A stretch of DNA of 4,441 bases from a virus (lineage: Duplodnaviria > Heunggongvirae > Uroviricota > Caudoviricetes): IMG/VR virus record IMGVR_UViG_2671180608_000007, positions 1 through 4,441 of that record; one strand, given 5' to 3'. Shown piece by piece: positions 1 to 4,441 of the stretch (its first letter is position 1; every line of letters starts with the position of its first letter). Below the pieces are notes generated by a model that saw nothing but the letters and a program-made list of their open reading frames with translations, was not told where the DNA came from and ran no database searches. The position numbers were made by a program, and so were the translations under genes.

Positions 1-137
1 TAACAGGTGTCTGGAAATATAGGGGCAAATCCAGCGTTCATCAGCCCCCGCATTGCCGACAGGATCACAGACGGGGGGCGCAACTGGTTGTCGTTCAACT
101 GGCCCAGCTACCGTTCTTGTATCAGAGGTGTGGCTGC

Positions 138-1529
138 ATGACAACACCAGTCTGGCGTAATGATGACCTGGAAGGCGCTGTCATTGGCGCATTCTTTCTG
201 CGTGGGGCAGATCATGAAGTGATGGATATTCTGATCACACTACCGGCGGACATTTTTTCTGTACGAGCGTATCGGGATATCTACACAGGCATCTGCAGAC
301 AGGCCCGTGTTTCAGGAGTGATTGACCCCGTGCTGTTGTGTAATGAGATGCCGGAACTTGCCCCGGTGATTACTGATACCGGGCGTAAAACCTGGGTGAA
401 GTCTTCACTGGAGCACTATGTTGCAGCGTTGCGGCGCAATGCCGCACTGCGCGATGCAGAAAAAACACTGAATGAGGCGCTGCAGAAATTACGTGATGCG
501 CATACCTGTGAAGCAGCTGAAGATGCCCTGAAGGATGCGCAGAACATGATGGTCACACTGTCGACAGGAAAGGGCGTCATTCAGCCGGTACATATTGATG
601 ATGTGCTTCCGGAAGTGGTTGAGCGTGTTGAATGCCGGAATCAGGGGCTGGAGAAATCCAGGACGTTGATGACCGGTATTGATGAACTGGACGCAAAAAC
701 AGGCGGTATGGAGCCCGGAGACCTGGTATTCATTGCCGCCCGTCCTTCGATGGGGAAAACCGAACTTGCGCTGGACATCATCGACAAGGTGACTGAGCAG
801 GGGCATGGTGTGCTTCTGTTCACCATGGAGATGGCGAACATCCAGATTGGTGAACGTATGGTGTCTGCGGCTGGAGGGATGCCAGTATCACGCCTGAAAT
901 CTGTGGCTCACTTTGAAGATGAAGACTGGGCGCGTTTCTCACAAGGGGTGGGGCGGATGACCGGGCGCAATATCTGGATGGTGGACCAGGCGAACCTGAC
1001 CATTGATGAGATATGCGCAACAACGAAACACCATCTGATTAAACATCCGGAAACGGCGCTGGTGGTGGTTGATTATCTCGGGCTGATAAAAACCCGAACC
1101 ACGGGGCGTCATGACCTTGCCGTGGGTGAAATCTCAAAGGGGCTTAAAGGCCTGGCAAAATCCGGTGGTTTTCCGTTGATTGCGCTGAGCCAGCTCTCCC
1201 GCGGTGTGGAGTCCAGACCCAATAAACGTCCCATGAACTCAGACCTGAAAAATTCCGGAGAAATAGAGGCGGATGCAGACATCATTCTGATGCTTTACAG
1301 GGATGAAGTGTACAACCCGGATACACAGGCTACAGGCATAGCAGAAATTAATATCACGAAACAACGTAACGGTTCTCTGGGGACGATTTACCGGCGTTTT
1401 TATAACGGACATTTTCTGCCTGTGGACCAGGAAAGCGCACAGGTTCTTTCCACCCCAATGCGGCAGCCCCAGCCGCGCAGATACAGCAATACACGTACCG
1501 ACAGCAGTAAGATGGAGCGTTTCTTTTGA
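138..1529 (+). CDS. Replicative DNA helicase, DnaB family (phage-encoded, P22 gp12-like)
   Basis: Translation carries a DnaB-type Walker A (AARPSMGKTELALD), a Walker B-like hydrophobic stretch ending in D (LVVVDYLGLI) and C-terminal DnaB-like blocks (SGGFPLIALSQLSRGVESRPNKRPMNSDLKNSGEIEADADIILMLYRDEVY, ITKQRNG). Start chosen at ATG 138 because GAGGTG sits 8 nt upstream; the track's TTG at 117 is the alternative. The frame is open to the window edge, so a start further upstream cannot be excluded. Confidence 0.9.
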   Translation: MTTPVWRNDDLEGAVIGAFFLRGADHEVMDILITLPADIFSVRAYRDIYTGICRQARVSGVIDPVLLCNEMPELAPVITDTGRKTWVKSSLEHYVAALRRNAALRDAEKTLNEALQKLRDAHTCEAAEDALKDAQNMMVTLSTGKGVIQPVHIDDVLPEVVERVECRNQGLEKSRTLMTGIDELDAKTGGMEPGDLVFIAARPSMGKTELALDIIDKVTEQGHGVLLFTMEMANIQIGERMVSAAGGMPVSRLKSVAHFEDEDWARFSQGVGRMTGRNIWMVDQANLTIDEICATTKHHLIKHPETALVVVDYLGLIKTRTTGRHDLAVGEISKGLKGLAKSGGFPLIALSQLSRGVESRPNKRPMNSDLKNSGEIEADADIILMLYRDEVYNPDTQATGIAEINITKQRNGSLGTIYRRFYNGHFLPVDQESAQVLSTPMRQPQPRRYSNTRTDSSKMERFF

Positions 1530-1783
1530 ACAACCAGACAATGACTTTTACCTCTGAACAATTGCGTAAACACGCGCAGGAAATGTTGCGACAGGCGGAA
1601 CAACTGGAAAAAACAGGTGTAACAAAAGATGCCATTCGTCGGGATATGGTGCCAGCGCTCAGGGAACTGATGCAGGCGAAACATCGCGCACAAAAAGCGG
1701 TGGATGAGCTCGTTGATTGTGTGGCAGAGCTGGAAACCAAAGTTGGAAAGTTTGAAAAAATGGTGCAGGAGGTGCTGCGCTGA
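1526..1783 (+). CDS. Hypothetical small protein (85 aa, predicted coiled coil) in the nin-region position
   Basis: Uninterrupted ORF packed between helicase and rusA. Its TTG start overlaps the helicase stop (TTTTGA) and its stop overlaps the rusA start (TGATG), suggesting translational coupling. Alternative start is ATG 1541. Charged, heptad-like sequence (EQLRKHAQEMLRQAEQLEK...). No family recognised. Confidence 0.5.
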   Translation: MNNQTMTFTSEQLRKHAQEMLRQAEQLEKTGVTKDAIRRDMVPALRELMQAKHRAQKAVDELVDCVAELETKVGKFEKMVQEVLR

Positions 1784-2154
1784 TGCGCCATGAGTTTATT
1801 TTACCTTATCCGCCGACGGTGAATACTTACTGGCGACGTCGTGGCAGCACATATTTTGTATCAAAAGTTGGTGAGCGTTATCGCCGTGATGTGACGCTAA
1901 TTGTTCGCCAGCAGCGGCTGAAATTAAACCTGTCCGGAAGGCTGGCGATAAAGATTATTGCAGAGCCACCGGATAAGCGCCGTCGTGACCTGGACAATAT
2001 CCTGAAAGCACCACTGGATGCGCTGACGCATGCCGGACTACTCATAGACGACGAGCAGTTTGATGAAATCAATATTGTGCGCGGTCAGCTCGTTCCTGGT
2101 GGGCGACTGGGCGTGAAGATTTATGAAATCACAGGTGATAACGATGGCGCGTGA
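1783..2154 (+). CDS. rusA: Crossover junction endodeoxyribonuclease RusA (Holliday junction resolvase)
   Basis: 123-aa product with the RusA signature ([15 protein letters not shown] ... [30 protein letters not shown]) and the acidic residues of the DxD/D catalytic cluster. GGAGG lies about 10 nt upstream of ATG 1783. Sits just before Q, as in phage 82 and DLP12. Confidence 0.9.
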
Positions 2155-2530
2155 TATTCAGCAGGTTATGGAACGGTGGGGGGCTTGGGCTGCAAACACT
2201 CATGAAGATGTATCCTGGGCGTCGATCGCTGCTGGTTTTAAAGGGTTAATTCCGTCGAAAGTGAAATCACGCCCTCAGTGTTCTGATGATGATGCAATGA
2301 TAATTTGTGGCTGTATGGCCCGGTTGAACAAGAAAAATCAGGATTTGCACGATTTGCTGGTGGATTATTACGTAGGTGGAATGACTTTTATGAGTCTGGC
2401 ACGGAAACATGGGTGTTCGGATACCTGTATTGGCAAGCGCCTGCAGAAAGCGGAAGGGGTTATTGATGGCATGTTGATGATGCTTGATATCCGGCTGGAG
2501 ATGGACAGATACGTAGAACGAATTATGTAG
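2144..2530 (+). CDS. Late-gene antitermination protein, small Q-like family (QuuD-like)
   Basis: 128-aa product ([23 protein letters not shown]...[20 protein letters not shown]...[22 protein letters not shown]) closely resembles the small Q-like antiterminators of E. coli cryptic prophages (QuuD, recalled from memory). Start at ATG 2144 with AGGTGA 5 nt upstream; it overlaps the rusA stop (ATGGCGCGTGA). The track's 2123 ATG lies inside rusA and is the less likely start. Confidence 0.85.
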
Positions 2531-2534
2531 GTGC

Positions 2535-2564
2535 TTGACCAGACACATTGTCCGGGGCTATATT
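2535..2564 (+). promoter_or_regulatory. Candidate late promoter PR' (sigma70 -35 TTGACC / 18-bp spacer / -10 TATATT)
   Basis: TTGACC at 2535-2540 and TATATT at 2559-2564, beginning 5 bp after the Q stop codon. This is the canonical position of PR' relative to Q in lambdoid phages. Predicted transcription start is about 2571. Confidence 0.5.
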
Positions 2565-2571
2565 CCTCACG

Positions 2572-2589
2572 CGCCAGCAAAATCTGGCG
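2572..2589 (+). promoter_or_regulatory. Perfect 6-bp inverted repeat in the initial transcribed region (candidate qut / pause-site hairpin)
   Basis: CGCCAG-caaaat-CTGGCG at 2572-2577 and 2584-2589, directly after the predicted start. The loop CAAAAT is a weak -10-like hexamer of the kind that causes sigma-dependent pausing at lambdoid late promoters. Confidence 0.35.
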
Positions 2590-2625
2590 TCGGGATTGGA
2601 ACCCCGGATAGAGACCGCGACAGAC

Positions 2626-2650
2626 ACACGCCGCGAGCGTGTTTTTTATT
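2626..2650 (+). terminator. Intrinsic terminator (tR'-like) ending a ~75-nt leader transcript
   Basis: 6-bp GC-rich stem ACACGC / GCGTGT (2626-2631 and 2637-2642) with a 5-nt loop, followed by TTTTTTATT. Confidence 0.6.
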
Positions 2651-2775
2651 GTCGTATGCACGCGCACATCTGAATTATGGTGGGGCGCATGGGGGAGCTG
2701 AAAAGCTCGCCGGTCGGTTTCCCGGTAGTTCCAACCCTGTGCGTCTCACCACCCGATGATTGGAACCTGACGGTG

Positions 2776-2804
2776 TTGACAGTTTCAGGTTTGCAGTTTA
2801 CATT
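2776..2804 (+). promoter_or_regulatory. Candidate sigma70 promoter for the ORF6N gene (-35 TTGACA / 17-bp spacer / -10 TACATT)
   Basis: Consensus -35 TTGACA at 2776-2781 and a 4/6 -10 at 2799-2804. It is preceded by a 7-bp inverted repeat GTTCCAA / TTGGAAC (2728-2734 and 2760-2766). Confidence 0.3.
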
Positions 2805-3010
2805 TCCCCGCGGTGCTCAAAACACCTCGAAAGCGGTATCCACACCCGATAGCCATGTGGTTTTTTTGTGTCCAGAATTCTTGGTTTATGACCGGGTGTG
2901 CGGCTAATACAATACCAGCAATGGAAATACGCCCGCCGACTTTCGACGGTTTTGAGCGCCCGGTCACCCTCTCAAAAGGGGTAAATCAAAATATTCGAAA
3001 GGACATGTCT

Positions 3011-3574
3011 ATGAATCGCACGTCTATTGAAAAACTCCCGTCACTTACGCATAACCATCTTCCTGTCATGACAACAGAGCTGCTGGCTGATTTGTACGGA
3101 ACAGAGCGCCAGCGTTTGACAAACAATTTCAATCGAAACAAAGAACGGTTTATAGAAGGTAAACATTTTTTCCTGATAGAAGGTGATGCGTTACGAGAGT
3201 TGAAGAACGAAAACTCTTTAAGAGTTTCTGTGAAAATTGCCCGTAACGTTCGCTCCCTCATCCTCTGGACAGAACGTGGCGCAGCCCGTCACGCCAAAAT
3301 GCTCGAAACCGATCAGGCGTGGGAAGTGTTCGAAAAACTGGAAGACTGTTATTTCAACCAGAAACAGCCACCAGCGGCACAAAACACATCTATCGAAAAT
3401 GATGGATGCGCATTACTGAGCCACTTCGATAAACACGGTCAGGTTGAGTTCACGGAAAAGGTACCCGCCGATGCGATGGTATGTACTCTGGAACGGTTTA
3501 AATTTTATCTGGAGCAACATGGGTGGATCGTTGCCCGTAAAGAACAATTGGTGGAAAGGTTGATGCGGTTTTAA
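3011..3574 (+). CDS. ORF6N/KilA-N-like DNA-binding domain protein (phage antirepressor-like accessory gene), 187 aa
   Basis: The N-terminal 100 residues match the ORF6N-type pattern (LADLYGTERQRLTNNFNRNKERFIEGKHFFLIEGDALRELK...SLILWTERGAARHAKMLETDQAWEVFEKLED). The C-terminal 85 aa are unrecognised. Start at ATG 3011 with AAGGA 7 nt upstream; ATG 3005 is in frame. The track's 2813 start adds a Trp/Cys/Phe-rich, non-protein-like extension across the promoter and T-run and is judged unlikely. Confidence 0.7.
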   Translation: MNRTSIEKLPSLTHNHLPVMTTELLADLYGTERQRLTNNFNRNKERFIEGKHFFLIEGDALRELKNENSLRVSVKIARNVRSLILWTERGAARHAKMLETDQAWEVFEKLEDCYFNQKQPPAAQNTSIENDGCALLSHFDKHGQVEFTEKVPADAMVCTLERFKFYLEQHGWIVARKEQLVERLMRF

Positions 3575-3700
3575 TGAATGCAAAACCCCGGATGATCACC
3601 GAGGTTAATTTTATCGAGCGTGATTGCCGCTAATCGCCATCGCTCTGATTGAGCGTAAATCATTCAGGTTATTCAGTTCTTCCTTCTGCTCTCGCTGACG

Positions 3701-3871
3701 TCAATAAATCCCATCATTGCGATCAACCTCATCCTTAACCATTGATGCGAGCAGTTCTTCCAGTTTCTGCGCTGACAGCTTTACCTGGTGATCTTCAGCA
3801 TCTTCCCGGGCTATTGTGGTTCGCGCAGTGGCTGATTTTGCTGACATCACCACAGGGGGCAGACGGACCAT
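3701..3871 (-). CDS. Hypothetical small protein (56 aa), convergent with the ORF6N gene
   Basis: ATG at 3871 with GGAGG 10 nt upstream (CCTCC at 3882-3886 on the + strand). Hydrophilic, helix-like product (MVRLPPVVMSAKSATARTTIAREDAEDHQVKLSAQKLEELLASMVKDEVDRNDGIY). The track's longer form from TTG 3982 would add a hydrophobic segment (LSIVVVIFALICSGG) and start 4 nt after the tfa-remnant stop. No family recognised. Confidence 0.35.
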   Translation of the reverse strand: MVRLPPVVMSAKSATARTTIAREDAEDHQVKLSAQKLEELLASMVKDEVDRNDGIY

Positions 3872-3985
3872 TGAACCATGGCCTCCGGAACAAATAAGGG
3901 CAAAAATAACAACCACTATCGAAAGCTCACAAACTAACCGCAGCACGTTCCTGCATACGACGTGTCTGCGGCATAATCCCAATGA

Positions 3986-4219
3986 TTACTCCCTGACAGG
4001 ATTTGCAGGCCACTCAATATCAGGTGCAGTTGATGTATCAACACGATTCAACAATACCCGATATTTATTCCATGCCTCCAGCAACGATCTTTCTTCCTCC
4101 GTTGCGATTTCCAGATCTACAGCATCCTGCAGTGGCGCAATATACTCACTAAATTCCTGGATGTAGAACTGTGTGGTGACGGTCTTCCAGCCATTCGGCT
4201 CCTGCTGTATCGAAGCATA
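3986..4219 (-). pseudogene. tfa: Tail fibre assembly protein (Tfa) 3' remnant, C-terminal 77 codons with no start codon
   Basis: Hand translation of the minus strand gives ...[53 protein letters not shown] then TAA (3988-3986), which is the conserved C-terminus of lambdoid/e14/Rac-type Tfa proteins. The frame is closed by an in-frame TAG at 4222-4220 with no ATG, GTG or TTG codon in between, so it is a 5'-truncated fragment. It is absent from the supplied ORF track. Confidence 0.75.
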
Positions 4220-4240
4220 CTAGGCTATTTCAATATCGCT

Positions 4241-4255
4241 ATGCTGCGGCAGCAT
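4241..4255. repeat. 15-bp palindrome ATGCTGC-G-GCAGCAT (candidate operator or hairpin)
   Basis: Perfect 7-bp arms around a central G, about 10 bp upstream of promoter-like hexamers and about 20 bp beyond the tfa truncation point. Confidence 0.4.
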
Positions 4256-4323
4256 TTAACCCCTTGTAATTCATCGCCATAATTGATTTAATTCACAAAT
4301 AAAACTATAACATGGTGAAATCA

Positions 4324-4383
4324 ATGAAAACAAACACAGATGATGGGGCTAAAATTTACACACCACTTACCCTAAAGCTTTAA
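4324..4383 (+). CDS. Very short ORF (19 aa, MKTNTDDGAKIYTPLTLKL) inside a promoter-to-terminator mini-unit; possibly the body of a small RNA instead
   Basis: ATG 4324 with GGTGA 5 nt upstream; an in-frame ATG at 4312 would give 23 aa. Promoter-like hexamers lie upstream (TTGTAA 4264-4269 with TTTAAT 4287-4292, or TTGATT 4283-4288 with TATAAC 4306-4311) and the intrinsic terminator lies 11 nt downstream. The product is hydrophilic, so not a type I toxin. Confidence 0.2.
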   Translation: MKTNTDDGAKIYTPLTLKL

Positions 4384-4393
4384 CACACAGCTT

Positions 4394-4420
4394 AAACCCG
4401 CCGATGAGCGGGTTTTTTTA
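4394..4420 (+). terminator. Intrinsic (rho-independent) terminator
   Basis: Stem CCCGC / GCGGG (4397-4401 and 4408-4412), extendable by A:T pairs, with loop CGATGA and followed by seven T (4413-4419). The + strand orientation is favoured because the minus-strand side has only a short T tract. Confidence 0.6.
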
Positions 4421-4441
4421 TACCTGAAAAACGGCACAGGA

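Follow-up and report, generated by a model that had tools for sequence, protein, structure and literature searches.

A predicted IsrK-like leader RNA of an antirepressor cassette downstream of a short Q gene in a lambdoid prophage

[quoted passage not shown] The segment would be one more copy of IsrK, a small RNA described before, and in that respect an ordinary element. The initial annotation had described the anatomy of the segment correctly, but its interpretation as a Q-dependent PR'/qut/tR' region is not supported. Our result is mainly a correction, the element being already known as the IsrK leader of an antirepressor cassette.

The promoter and short RNA at 2531-2650

The following features were identified in and directly upstream of the segment:

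2144-2530, + strand: short Q antiterminator gene, 128 aa, 933W/H-19B type (Pfam PF06530, E 2.2e-52)
2535-2564, + strand: sigma-70 promoter, -35 TTGACC (2535-2540), 18-nt spacer, -10 TATATT (2559-2564)
2571-2647, + strand: predicted IsrK-like short RNA (a1/b1 leader of the C4 module), ~77 nt, from G2571
2571-2590, + strand: hairpin 1 (a1), stem GCGCCAG/CUGGCGU, loop CAAAAU (2578-2583), from fold and covariation
2591-2606, + strand: hairpin 2 (b1), CGGG-AUUGGAAC-CCCG, loop 2595-2602, from fold
2626-2648, + strand: intrinsic terminator, stem ACACGC/GCGUGU (2626-2642), loop CGCGA, six U, from scan and fold

The Q gene, which ends with TAG at 2528-2530, is the upstream neighbour of the cassette and lies outside it; its product distantly matches the Q21 structures 6p18 and 6jnx (E 3e-7). 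The -35 box starts 5 bp past the Q stop and the promoter matches the sigma-70 consensus at 10 of the 12 positions, in agreement with the near-consensus promoter that the initial annotation had placed there. The perfect 6-bp hairpin with a CAAAAT loop that it had described at the start of the RNA was also recovered, extended in the fold by a seventh, outermost G-U pair, and so was the intrinsic terminator about 75 nt downstream, which spans ~55-77 nt past the start site and has its T-run at 2643-2648. The loop of hairpin 2 holds the specificity triplet AAC, placed after AUUGG.

Taken alone, the fold and the promoter and terminator scans of this segment are weak evidence. The minimum free energy of the short RNA was -26.0 kcal/mol (z = -2.0), with 8 of 200 shuffled sequences equally stable, and the numbers of promoter-like sites (4 observed, 5.8 expected) and terminator-like sites (6 observed, 4.4 expected) in the scan of the window were both at chance level and were rejected as evidence. 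The elements stand above chance because of homology, namely the Rfam isrK match and the covariation in hairpin 1. The isrK model (RF01394) matched 2571-2647 over positions 1-77 of its 77 positions with 77.5 bits (cutoff 50, E 5e-16), the c4-a1b1 model (RF03163) matched 2558-2610 with 50.1 bits (cutoff 46.7) and the C4 model (RF01695) matched 2673-2756 with 71.0 bits (cutoff 45, E 5e-13). All three score above their gathering cutoffs and occur in the canonical order, followed by an ORF6N antirepressor gene, and the complete isrK anatomy (own promoter, two 5' hairpins and a Rho-independent terminator) is present at 2535-2648.

In 67 distinct homologous 5' ends, hairpin 1 showed compensatory changes at 6 of its 7 pairs, and 98.9% of the cells were paired, against at most 50% when the partners were slid. 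The initial annotation had proposed the CAAAAT motif in the loop (+8 to +13), which agrees with the -10 consensus in 4 of 6 bases (A2 and T6 among them), as a sigma-dependent pause and Q-loading element. We found no support for Q loading at this motif. CAAAAU is the invariant a1 loop of the RNA family, and its stem shows RNA-level covariation that extends to G-U pairs, so that a sigma-pause function is not needed to account for it; given the partial match to the -10 consensus, a sigma pause may nonetheless occur there.

C4 RNA, b sites and the antirepressor gene

Downstream of the short RNA the sequence suggests the layout of P1 ImmI and Gifsy-1 IsrK, i.e. a leader followed by a C4 RNA, a b2 site and an ORF6N antirepressor gene:

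2673-2756, + strand: C4-type antisense RNA (Rfam C4), b' loop GUUCCAA at 2728-2734
2759-2766, + strand: b2 target site AUUGGAAC, an exact repeat of the b1 loop (2595-2602), 3' of C4
2776-3010, + strand: second leader module, driving the antirepressor gene, from Rfam and promoter/terminator scans
2776-2804, + strand: promoter of module 2, TTGACA-17-TACATT
2812-2826, + strand: hairpin of module 2
2840-2867, + strand: terminator-like hairpin of module 2
2890-2973, + strand: sRNA-Xcc1-like RNA of module 2 (Rfam)
3011-3574, + strand: ORF6N antirepressor-like gene, AnrP/Ant homologue (Pfam PF10543, E 8.8e-21)

Through its b' loop, C4 is complementary to b1 as well as to b2, and among the matches listed 91 of 113 distinct loci show three-way covariation of the triplets in b1, the C4 loop and b2; the b1/b'/b2 pairing predicted for the window is supported by this covariation. 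Four specificity types of the b triplet were observed (CGT, AAC, TCT and AAG), with AAC in the window and CGT in phage Nil2 and in the viral contig L002. Between CAAAAU of a1 and the second loop of C4 just a 4-5 bp A/U core could be seen by eye, and no a2 site was located when the a' complementarity of C4 to a1/a2 was examined. Duplex predictions among IsrK, C4 and the sequence downstream of them returned long, uninformative global duplexes and were left out. The C4 RNA is predicted to be transcribed only when polymerase passes the IsrK terminator, and it corresponds to STnc1160 of Gifsy-1.

The window is a rearranged member of the C4/c4-a1b1 module class, because a second promoter module follows b2 and the antirepressor gene starts only 245 nt further on. 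This second module stands in place of the antirepressor start of module 1. It is also present ahead of antB in phage Nil2, where module 1 keeps its own antA. In L002, Nil2 and Gifsy-1 the ribosome-binding site of the antirepressor gene lies within ~50 nt 3' of b2, whereas in the window the distance from b2 to the ant start codon is ~245 nt and the module-1 b2 is not at a downstream translation start. With a start codon at this distance, it is uncertain what the C4/b2 pairing regulates in the window. Homologues of the gene at 3011-3574 carry an antirepressor annotation in Stx phages.

Comparison with known systems and proposed mechanism

The closest parallel is IsrK of the Salmonella prophage Gifsy-1 (RF01394; Hershko-Shalev et al. 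2016, PMC4825925), which shares with the window the full-length match to the model, a promoter that abuts the Q stop, the two 5' hairpins, a ~77-nt RNA with its own terminator, orf45-type AUGs at +107 and +119, and a C4-like RNA (the STnc1160/orf45 region) and an ORF6N antirepressor gene that follow. The two differ in the upstream Q (a PF06530 short Q in the window and a PF06323 phage-82-type Q in Gifsy-1) and in the b specificity type (AAC and CGT, respectively). The order in Gifsy-1 is phage-82-type Q, isrK, C4, anrP and isrJ; a homologue of isrJ abuts the Q stop in phage CobraSix and in Klebsiella phages. It was established experimentally that anrP transcription in Gifsy-1 is lost when the homologous promoter is deleted (280 versus 3 Miller units), that the short IsrK ends at its own intrinsic terminator with partial read-through into the downstream genes, that a stable, Hfq-binding IsrK of ~77 nt exists next to a read-through isoform, that STnc1160 is processed from the read-through transcript and that the short IsrK activates orf45-anrP translation in trans (PMC4825925). 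The orf45-anrP coupling cannot run as described in the window, because the second leader module replaces the antirepressor start of module 1.

Initiation, hairpins, termination, read-through and trans-activation were demonstrated for the Gifsy-1 homologue, and by homology to it we propose the following for the window. The sigma-70 promoter would initiate at G2571, and the RNA would fold into two hairpins that present the a1 (CAAAAU) and b1 (AUUGGAAC) sites in their loops. The majority of the transcripts would end at the 2626-2648 terminator and yield a stable IsrK-like RNA of ~77 nt, and a fraction would read through, with no dedicated factor, into a long RNA that carries C4, b2 and then the antirepressor gene. 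Processed C4 would pair through its b' loop with b2 and thereby keep antirepressor expression low. It could pair with b1 as well, whether this site is part of the leader or of the released short RNA, and the short RNA may compete with or remodel the C4/b2 pairing, which would favour translation of the antirepressor. The antirepressor would inactivate the prophage repressor and the early operon would be switched on, Q included. In this proposal Q is a downstream consequence of the antirepressor switch and not its operator.

In ImmI of P1 the c4 antisense RNA acts on the a1/b1 and a2/b2 target sites to control icd-ant. The window resembles P1/P7 ImmI (icd-ant control; RF01695, RF03163; PMC2864571) in its a1/b1 leader, C4 RNA, downstream target site and antirepressor gene, and in a C4 loop complementary to repeated, specificity-defining target sites. 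It differs in the intrinsic terminator that parts a1/b1 from C4, which would produce a discrete short RNA, and in the host element, a lambdoid prophage instead of a P1-like plasmid prophage. The CI RNA in the transcription-termination immunity of P4 (with seqA and seqC) likewise belongs to this Rfam family, and is an antisense RNA that is processed and pairs with sites both up- and downstream; SeqA was called a structural homologue of IsrK by the authors of the IsrK study (PMC4825925). In P4 the pairing causes premature termination of the replication genes.

There is some chance, though a rather small one, that module 1 is a decaying remnant that is still transcribed but has no cis regulation left, with ant under module 2 only. 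Module 1 is without its cognate antirepressor start (the promoter at 2776 comes right after b2 and ant is read from 3011), the short spacing of b2 and the antirepressor ribosome-binding site found in Nil2, L002 and Gifsy-1 is lost, and the adjoining late region is rearranged as well. Against such decay, all RNA elements are intact with scores equal to those of functional homologues, b1, b' and b2 are still of one specificity type (AAC), ant would still be carried on the read-through RNA, and the tandem arrangement recurs with essentially no change in four viral contigs that are independent of each other (L022, L039, L062 and L084).

We consider it unlikely, and somewhat less probable than decay, that the short RNA is mainly a trans-acting, Hfq-dependent sRNA for host mRNAs, as StxS is for rpoS, with the cassette as a secondary feature. 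Rfam does label isrK as an Hfq-binding RNA and StxS, which derives from a PR', shows that leader RNAs of prophages can gain host targets (PMC7547250), but IsrK has no known host target, the toxicity of Gifsy-1 IsrK requires the chromosomal isrK locus in cis as well as anrP and antQ, and the conserved loops match partners within the cassette.

The late promoter of Q and the distribution of the isrK unit

For the IsrK-leader reading it is important that the short Q family of the window has a well-conserved Stx-phage-type PR' of its own. In viral contigs, Q genes that are 78-83% identical to that of the window lie directly upstream of this unit, which has the form TTTACGATCGTAAAA...TAAGAGTG...terminator and corresponds to the annotated late promoter, qut and terminator (PR'/tR') of the Stx phages VT1-Sakai, H-19B and 933W. 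Its start site was mapped before by dRNA-seq (PMC7547250). In a scan with the 15-mer TTTACGATCGTAAAA, 39 of the 120 listed matches were set aside since they lacked a PR'-like downstream signature (unrelated occurrences or cut contigs). Among the matches listed, Q was found at most 70 nt upstream of the unit in 51 of 81 viral loci, and in 25 more of these loci Q was present upstream with an insert, which contained isrK in 19 of the 25. Similarly, the unit was found 12-54 nt 3' of three Q homologues (of Photorhabdus, Providencia and Martelella) that were retrieved by protein similarity alone.

Three sibling contigs (L022, L062 and L084) are 99.9% identical to positions 1-3574 of the window and have the TTTACGATCGTAAAA unit directly 3' of the antirepressor gene. 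In the relative L002, a separate PR' unit and further terminators lie ahead of the holin gene. The 15-mer was not found anywhere in the window, with up to 3 mismatches allowed, and what is left of the unit is:

4384-4420, + strand: remnant of the PR' unit of the Q family, comprising the leader end (CACACAGCUUAAACCC...) and the first intrinsic terminator

The terminator of this remnant lies at 4394-4415 and the promoter is missing from the window. The remnant is 100% identical to L022, L062 and L084, where it is preceded by a PR'-type promoter (TTTACG-16-TATCCT) that contains TTTACGATCGTAAAA. A promoter-like site at 4256-4283 was rejected as a substitute PR', as it sits in an 809-bp segment with 99.5% identity to an E. 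coli tail-fibre-assembly region. No better late promoter can be named inside the window because the canonical PR' promoter is absent, and the prophage is probably defective for Q-dependent late transcription, as this promoter is missing. No Rfam family was found for the PR'-type unit, the sole match being to RprA at chance level (E 0.6); a Trp_leader match at 4335-4421 (26 bits, cutoff 41) was rejected as it merely reflects the terminator. tRNA genes 3' of Q, as in Stx phages, were not found in the window.

The loading site of Q itself thus appears, from these sequence comparisons, to be the TTTACGATCGTAAAA-type PR', replaced in the window and kept in near-identical prophages. For Q21, specificity lies in TGAGCA repeats of the PR' spacer; such repeats are absent from the spacer of the promoter at 2535-2564. 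A natural candidate for the Q-binding element, which the initial annotation had called not well defined for this family, is the near-palindromic TTTACGATCGTAAA at the -35/spacer of the Stx-type PR'.

The association of the two units with Q was assessed by exact-pattern scans of viral contigs, which are biased to the exact 15-mer or a 17-base signature, since a protein-based locus search of genome contigs gave only 8 loci. The promoter-hairpins-terminator unit was found in at least 110 distinct copies. Among the matches listed, its own promoter occurs at the same distance in all 110 distinct copies (with at least 9 of 12 consensus positions in 91 of them) and a T-run of at least 5 occurs at the terminator position, in the same register, in 108. 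A relative of the Q of the window was lacking within 1.5 kb upstream in 117 of 140 copies listed. The upstream neighbours among the matches listed included short Q (16), an unknown 126-aa protein (15), PF06323 Q (8), Dam (7), the Q-like DUF1133 (6), AlpA (4), PF03589 Q (1) and others. The unit is found after Q genes of four families (PF06530, PF06323, DUF1133 and PF03589), of which the other three are unrelated or only distantly related to that of the window, and after many non-Q genes; it directly follows a Q of some family in 31 of ~122 copies listed, about a quarter. Other settings include a position after ninE in Nil2, a position near int in phi346 and, for a second copy in L002, a position after a Rha gene.

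These data suggest that the isrK unit is self-contained and mobile, and that insertion of the IsrK-C4-antirepressor cassette between Q and PR' has recurred, next to Q genes of unrelated families. To explain the enrichment after Q genes we offer only capture at the Q/PR' junction. That the recurrent capture after four Q families reflects functional coupling and not a recombination hot spot is conceivable but improbable. In prophages that carry the cassette at this junction, the control module of the antirepressor adjoins the late switch.

The distribution bears directly on the initial interpretation of 2531-2650 as a Q-dependent late switch, with the promoter as PR', CAAAAT as the sigma pause and Q-loading element, the terminator as tR', the short RNA as an analogue of lambda 6S RNA and Q-modified polymerase reading into the late genes, which we consider highly improbable. 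A promoter in the canonical PR' position, 5 bp past the Q stop, followed by a promoter-proximal intrinsic terminator is indeed present, the promoter/short RNA/terminator architecture is real, CAAAAT has its partial match to the -10 consensus, the window lacks the canonical PR' promoter and the unit follows four Q families. Moreover, Sy et al. call the promoter of IsrK antitermination-regulated, and overproduced AntQ of Gifsy-1 (phage-82-type, another family) disturbs termination globally, which makes some effect of Q possible. Nevertheless, co-inheritance of the promoter region with a cognate Q family was not observed: Q specificity is family-specific, yet this unit is shared by Q genes of unrelated families and also lies behind many genes that do not encode a Q, and the Q family of the window is tied to a different, known PR' that differs in sequence from 2531-2650 and left no trace in 2531-2570. 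Late (lysis or structural) genes do not follow the unit, a C4 RNA and an antirepressor gene being found in their place; loop and stem are accounted for by covariation at the RNA level; and in Gifsy-1 phage production after induction of AnrP needs neither the isrK locus nor its promoter (PMC4825925).

The short leader RNA of the initial annotation is retained with respect to its anatomy of ~77 nt, for which the homologue provides data, but its identity would be isrK/c4-a1b1 and not a late leader of the lambda 6S type. Lambda 6S RNA and StxS (PMC7547250) do resemble the window in having a constitutive promoter by Q and a short terminated RNA next to a longer read-through form, whereas their units are inherited together with their own Q and lead into late or stx genes. 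The presence of a promoter, a hairpin and a terminator right after Q does not by itself define PR'/tR', and if units like 2531-2650 were annotated in this way, the late switch would be misplaced in this prophage and in many related ones.

Least probable of all, in our view, is that Q has been re-targeted to transcripts from the IsrK promoter, or acts on them loosely as overproduced AntQ does, with the terminator at 2626-2648 as a Q-sensitive gate. The starting point for this reading is that the prophage has lost its cognate PR' promoter while the IsrK promoter occupies exactly the Q/PR' junction. Such a gate would join the antirepressor, Q and the late genes in one positive-feedback transcript.

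The IsrK-type leader and its C4 antisense-RNA module

The window is the replication/nin/Q segment of a lambdoid prophage, in which approximately 480 bp without long ORFs lie between the Q gene and the antirepressor-like gene ant:

138-1529: DnaB-type helicase gene, followed by a small ORF
1783-2154: RusA
2144-2530: short Q antiterminator gene (PF06530, E 2e-52), stop codon TAG at 2528-2530
2535-2540 and 2559-2564: promoter TTGACC, 18 nt, TATATT (10/12 to consensus)
2558-2610, + strand: c4-a1b1 (50.1 bits, cutoff 46.7)
2571-2647, + strand: isrK, full length (77.5 bits, cutoff 50; E 5e-16)
2571-2590: hairpin 1, GCGCCAG-CAAAAU-CUGGCGU, in the predicted fold of the RNA from G2571
2591-2606: hairpin 2, CGGG-AUUGGAAC-CCCG, directly 3' of hairpin 1
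2595-2602: b1 loop AUUGGAAC, repeated as b2 at 2759-2766
2626-2642: terminator ACACGC-CGCGA-GCGUGU, then six U
2673-2756, + strand: C4 antisense RNA (71.0 bits, cutoff 45)
2728-2734: GUUCCAA, complement of b1, in a C4 loop
2776-2804: second-module promoter, TTGACA-17-TACATT
2812-2826: second-module hairpin GGUGCUCAAAACACC
2840-2867: second-module terminator-like hairpin and U7
2890-2973, + strand: sRNA-Xcc1 (RF02221; 77.4 bits, cutoff 53)
2986-2992: UCAAAAU, immediately before the Shine-Dalgarno sequence of ant
3011-3574: ant (ORF6N)

Since the Rfam scan gave four consecutive above-threshold matches on the + strand, the region 2531-2650 is a promoter with an IsrK-type short RNA. The element is the already known IsrK / c4-a1b1, the short RNA being the a1/b1 leader to a C4 antisense-RNA module whose layout is shared by the P1/P7 ImmI region and the isrK locus of the Salmonella prophage Gifsy-1. 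The variable triplet of b1 covaries with its C4 complement and with its repeat in b2 at 91 of 113 distinct loci, which supports pairing at the b site; four b specificities occur (CGT, AAC, TCT and AAG), the window being of the AAC type and the E. coli relative L002 and phage Nil2 of the CGT type.

The promoter, hairpin and terminator of the initial annotation were all recovered by promoter and terminator scans and RNA folding. Taken alone this anatomy does not go beyond chance, the numbers of promoter-like and terminator-like sites in the window equalling the shuffled expectation and the z-score of the short-RNA fold being only -2.0; it is homology that makes it real. Among 67 distinct 5' ends, hairpin 1 showed compensatory changes in six of seven pairs, G-U pairs included, and 98.9% paired cells versus at most 50% with slid partners; selection on this hairpin acts at the RNA level. 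The CAAAAU hexamer is the invariant a1 loop of the IsrK / c4-a1b1 family, an invariance that is partly built into our set by the search pattern and that the Rfam consensus shows as well.

Within the promoter spacer (2542-2552) lies an inverted repeat, GACAcatTGTC, seen only in IsrK copies linked to the short Q; elsewhere the 5' part of the spacer differs, with TCCGGGGC before the -10 as the common element. The repeat may act as an operator or be no more than junction sequence. Inside the C4-like RNA begins an ORF of 76 aa (2677-2907), its two AUGs (+107 and +119 relative to the IsrK start) being placed as in Gifsy-1 orf45; it differs from orf45 in its 3' part because of rearrangement and, since it ends approximately 100 nt before ant, translational coupling to ant is lost.

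Directly 5' of ant, positions 2776-3010 hold a different, second leader module, in which GUUUUGAGC (2949-2957, inside the sRNA-Xcc1 match) is complementary to the leader loop GCUCAAAAC (2815-2823) at all nine positions. The module resembles another leader/antisense system of the C4 kind, and prophage homologues of sRNA-Xcc1 may for that reason be antirepressor regulators.

Regulation expected from Gifsy-1

In Gifsy-1, transcription of anrP is driven by the isrK promoter (280 versus 3 Miller units without it), its own terminator delimits the short IsrK, and some of the transcripts extend past it as an isrK-orf45-anrP RNA, from which the stable species STnc1160 is processed and which is opened in trans by short IsrK for translation of orf45-anrP; AnrP in turn raises transcription of the antQ operon (PMC4825925). 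STnc1160 corresponds to the C4 match. By analogy, the sigma-70 promoter of the window would yield an IsrK-type RNA of approximately 77 nt, of which the a1 and b1 loops would imitate the target sites of the neighbouring downstream C4 RNA, and the intrinsic terminator would set the ratio of short to read-through RNA, the latter supplying C4 and b2. C4-b2 pairing would hold the antirepressor off, the short RNA would counteract this, and the antirepressor would derepress the prophage and so turn Q on. The steps up to read-through, as well as the trans-activation, have been shown in Gifsy-1; the regulatory effect in the window's rearranged copy is uncertain, because b2 is followed there by a second promoter module and not by the antirepressor start.

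The IsrK cassette and the late promoter of the short-Q family

A search of viral contigs with the IsrK signature GCAAAATC-N6-CGGGATTGG, together with the other loci of the comparison, gave at least 140 instances. Among the matches listed, a relative of the window's Q was absent within 1.5 kb upstream in 117 of 140 and adjacent in 17, six having too little upstream sequence to judge. The upstream genes in these matches included short Q (16), PF06323 (phage-82-type) Q (8), DUF1133 (Q-like, 6) and PF03589 (lambda-type) Q (1), next to an unknown 126-aa protein (15), Dam methylase (7), AlpA (4), integrases and others. In phage Nil2 the unit follows ninE; a Q21-type q lies approximately 4 kb further downstream, and the TGAGCA repeats of this q's separate PR' were shown previously to be the Q21-binding element. 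In the Stx2a phage phi346 the unit lies near int. Among the distinct copies listed, a same-register promoter was found in 110 of 110 (at least 9/12 to consensus in 91) and a T-run behind IsrK in 108. Given these diverse neighbours and constant elements, promoter, hairpins and terminator travel with C4 and the antirepressor gene as one cassette, not with a particular Q. The E. coli prophage relative (L002) carries two isrK-C4 modules (4175-4363 and 9538-9720), one in the early region behind the gene of a Rha-family regulator, the second after Q.

Downstream of Q homologues collected by protein similarity alone from Photorhabdus, Providencia and Martelella, a different conserved unit was found at 12-54 nt, consisting of TTTACGATCGTAAAA, a TATnnT -10, (G/T)(A/T)TAAGAGTG, a small covarying hairpin, CAGCTTA and a terminator. 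The 15-mer TTTACGATCGTAAAA occurred at no fewer than 120 loci in viral contigs, 81 of them with a PR'-like downstream signature; among the matches listed, a window-type Q lay at most 70 nt upstream in 51 of the 81 and was separated from the unit by an insert of 192-3017 nt in 25, of which 19 contained isrK (13 by exact signature, six more by Rfam). In its commonest version the unit matches the sequence behind Q in H-19B, VT1-Sakai and many Stx phages at 100% identity, and is annotated there as putative late promoter, Q-utilisation site and PR' terminator. The start site of the Stx-phage PR' was mapped by dRNA-seq, and its leader gives rise to the sRNA StxS, the presence of which correlates with the short Q clade (PMC7547250). 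The family of this short Q thus already has a known PR', which is not 2531-2650; the window's Q protein itself is only a distant relative of Q21 (structure solved; E 3e-7 over residues 9-86).

The initial annotation had read 2531-2650 as a Q-dependent PR' and tR'. While its anatomy stands, we consider Q dependence very improbable, the cassette being unlinked to Q and another PR' being known. CAAAAT does match the -10 consensus at four of six positions, some Q gene precedes a quarter of the cassettes, IsrK was called antitermination-regulated by Sy et al., and overproduced Gifsy-1 AntQ, a phage-82-type Q, perturbs termination globally. Induction of Gifsy-1 by AnrP needs no isrK locus (PMC4825925), which would be unexpected of a late promoter at isrK. 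The annotation was misled because the -35 hexamer of the cassette lands exactly where PR' normally begins (5 bp after the Q stop in the window, overlapping the stop codon in Gifsy-1) and because the real PR' promoter is missing from the window.

A second, unrelated Q family offers a parallel. Gifsy-1 has the order phage-82-type Q (STM2617), isrK, C4, anrP, isrJ, and in Enterobacter phage CobraSix and Klebsiella phages (ninG-ylcG-Q-isrJ-like-tRNA-holin, without the isrK cassette) the isrJ homologue lies, together with its promoter, directly against the Q stop codon, so the cassette has been inserted between Q and its PR'-type leader here too. It appears that the phage-82-type Q has the Salmonella sRNA IsrJ as its PR' leader, a 6S-RNA analogue; the sites compared were 33406-33480 (minus strand) in Gifsy-1 and 901-1010 in CobraSix.

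Across the -35 element and 5' spacer of the short-Q PR' runs a conserved near-palindrome, TTTACGATCGTAAA (oriented coordinates L007 4426, L008 4387, L009 4426, L002 10277 and L022 6655 in the comparison loci; PR' at 921-1003 in VT1-Sakai), followed in the leader by the small covarying hairpin (GTGG..CCAC versus GTGA..TCAC). Its position matches that of the Q-binding elements of lambda and phage 21, and for Q of the 933W/H-19B type it is a candidate binding element.

The rearranged end of the window

Three sibling viral contigs (L022, L062 and L084) share 99.9% identity with window positions 1-3574. Their antirepressor stop is followed by approximately 65 bp with a promoter that includes the 15-mer TTTACGATCGTAAAA (TTTACG-16-TATCCT) and with the leader start GTTAAGAGTGG, beyond which they match 4384-4441 exactly. 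In place of these 65 bp the window has 809 bp (3575-4383), 99.5% identical, in inverted orientation, to an E. coli tail-fibre-assembly / SAM-methyltransferase / Rha region and including a sub-threshold IS009 match (4029-4232, minus strand, 110.8 bits versus a cutoff of 117). Only the leader end and terminator of the PR' unit survive (4384-4420), and the 15-mer was not found in the whole window even at three mismatches; this prophage has probably lost Q-dependent late transcription. Another sibling (L039, 3619-5650) has an insertion of approximately 1.9 kb within the antirepressor gene's 3' end, with duplicated ant-3' and terminator-3' segments on its flanks, and a rearrangement hot spot seems to lie between ant and tR'.
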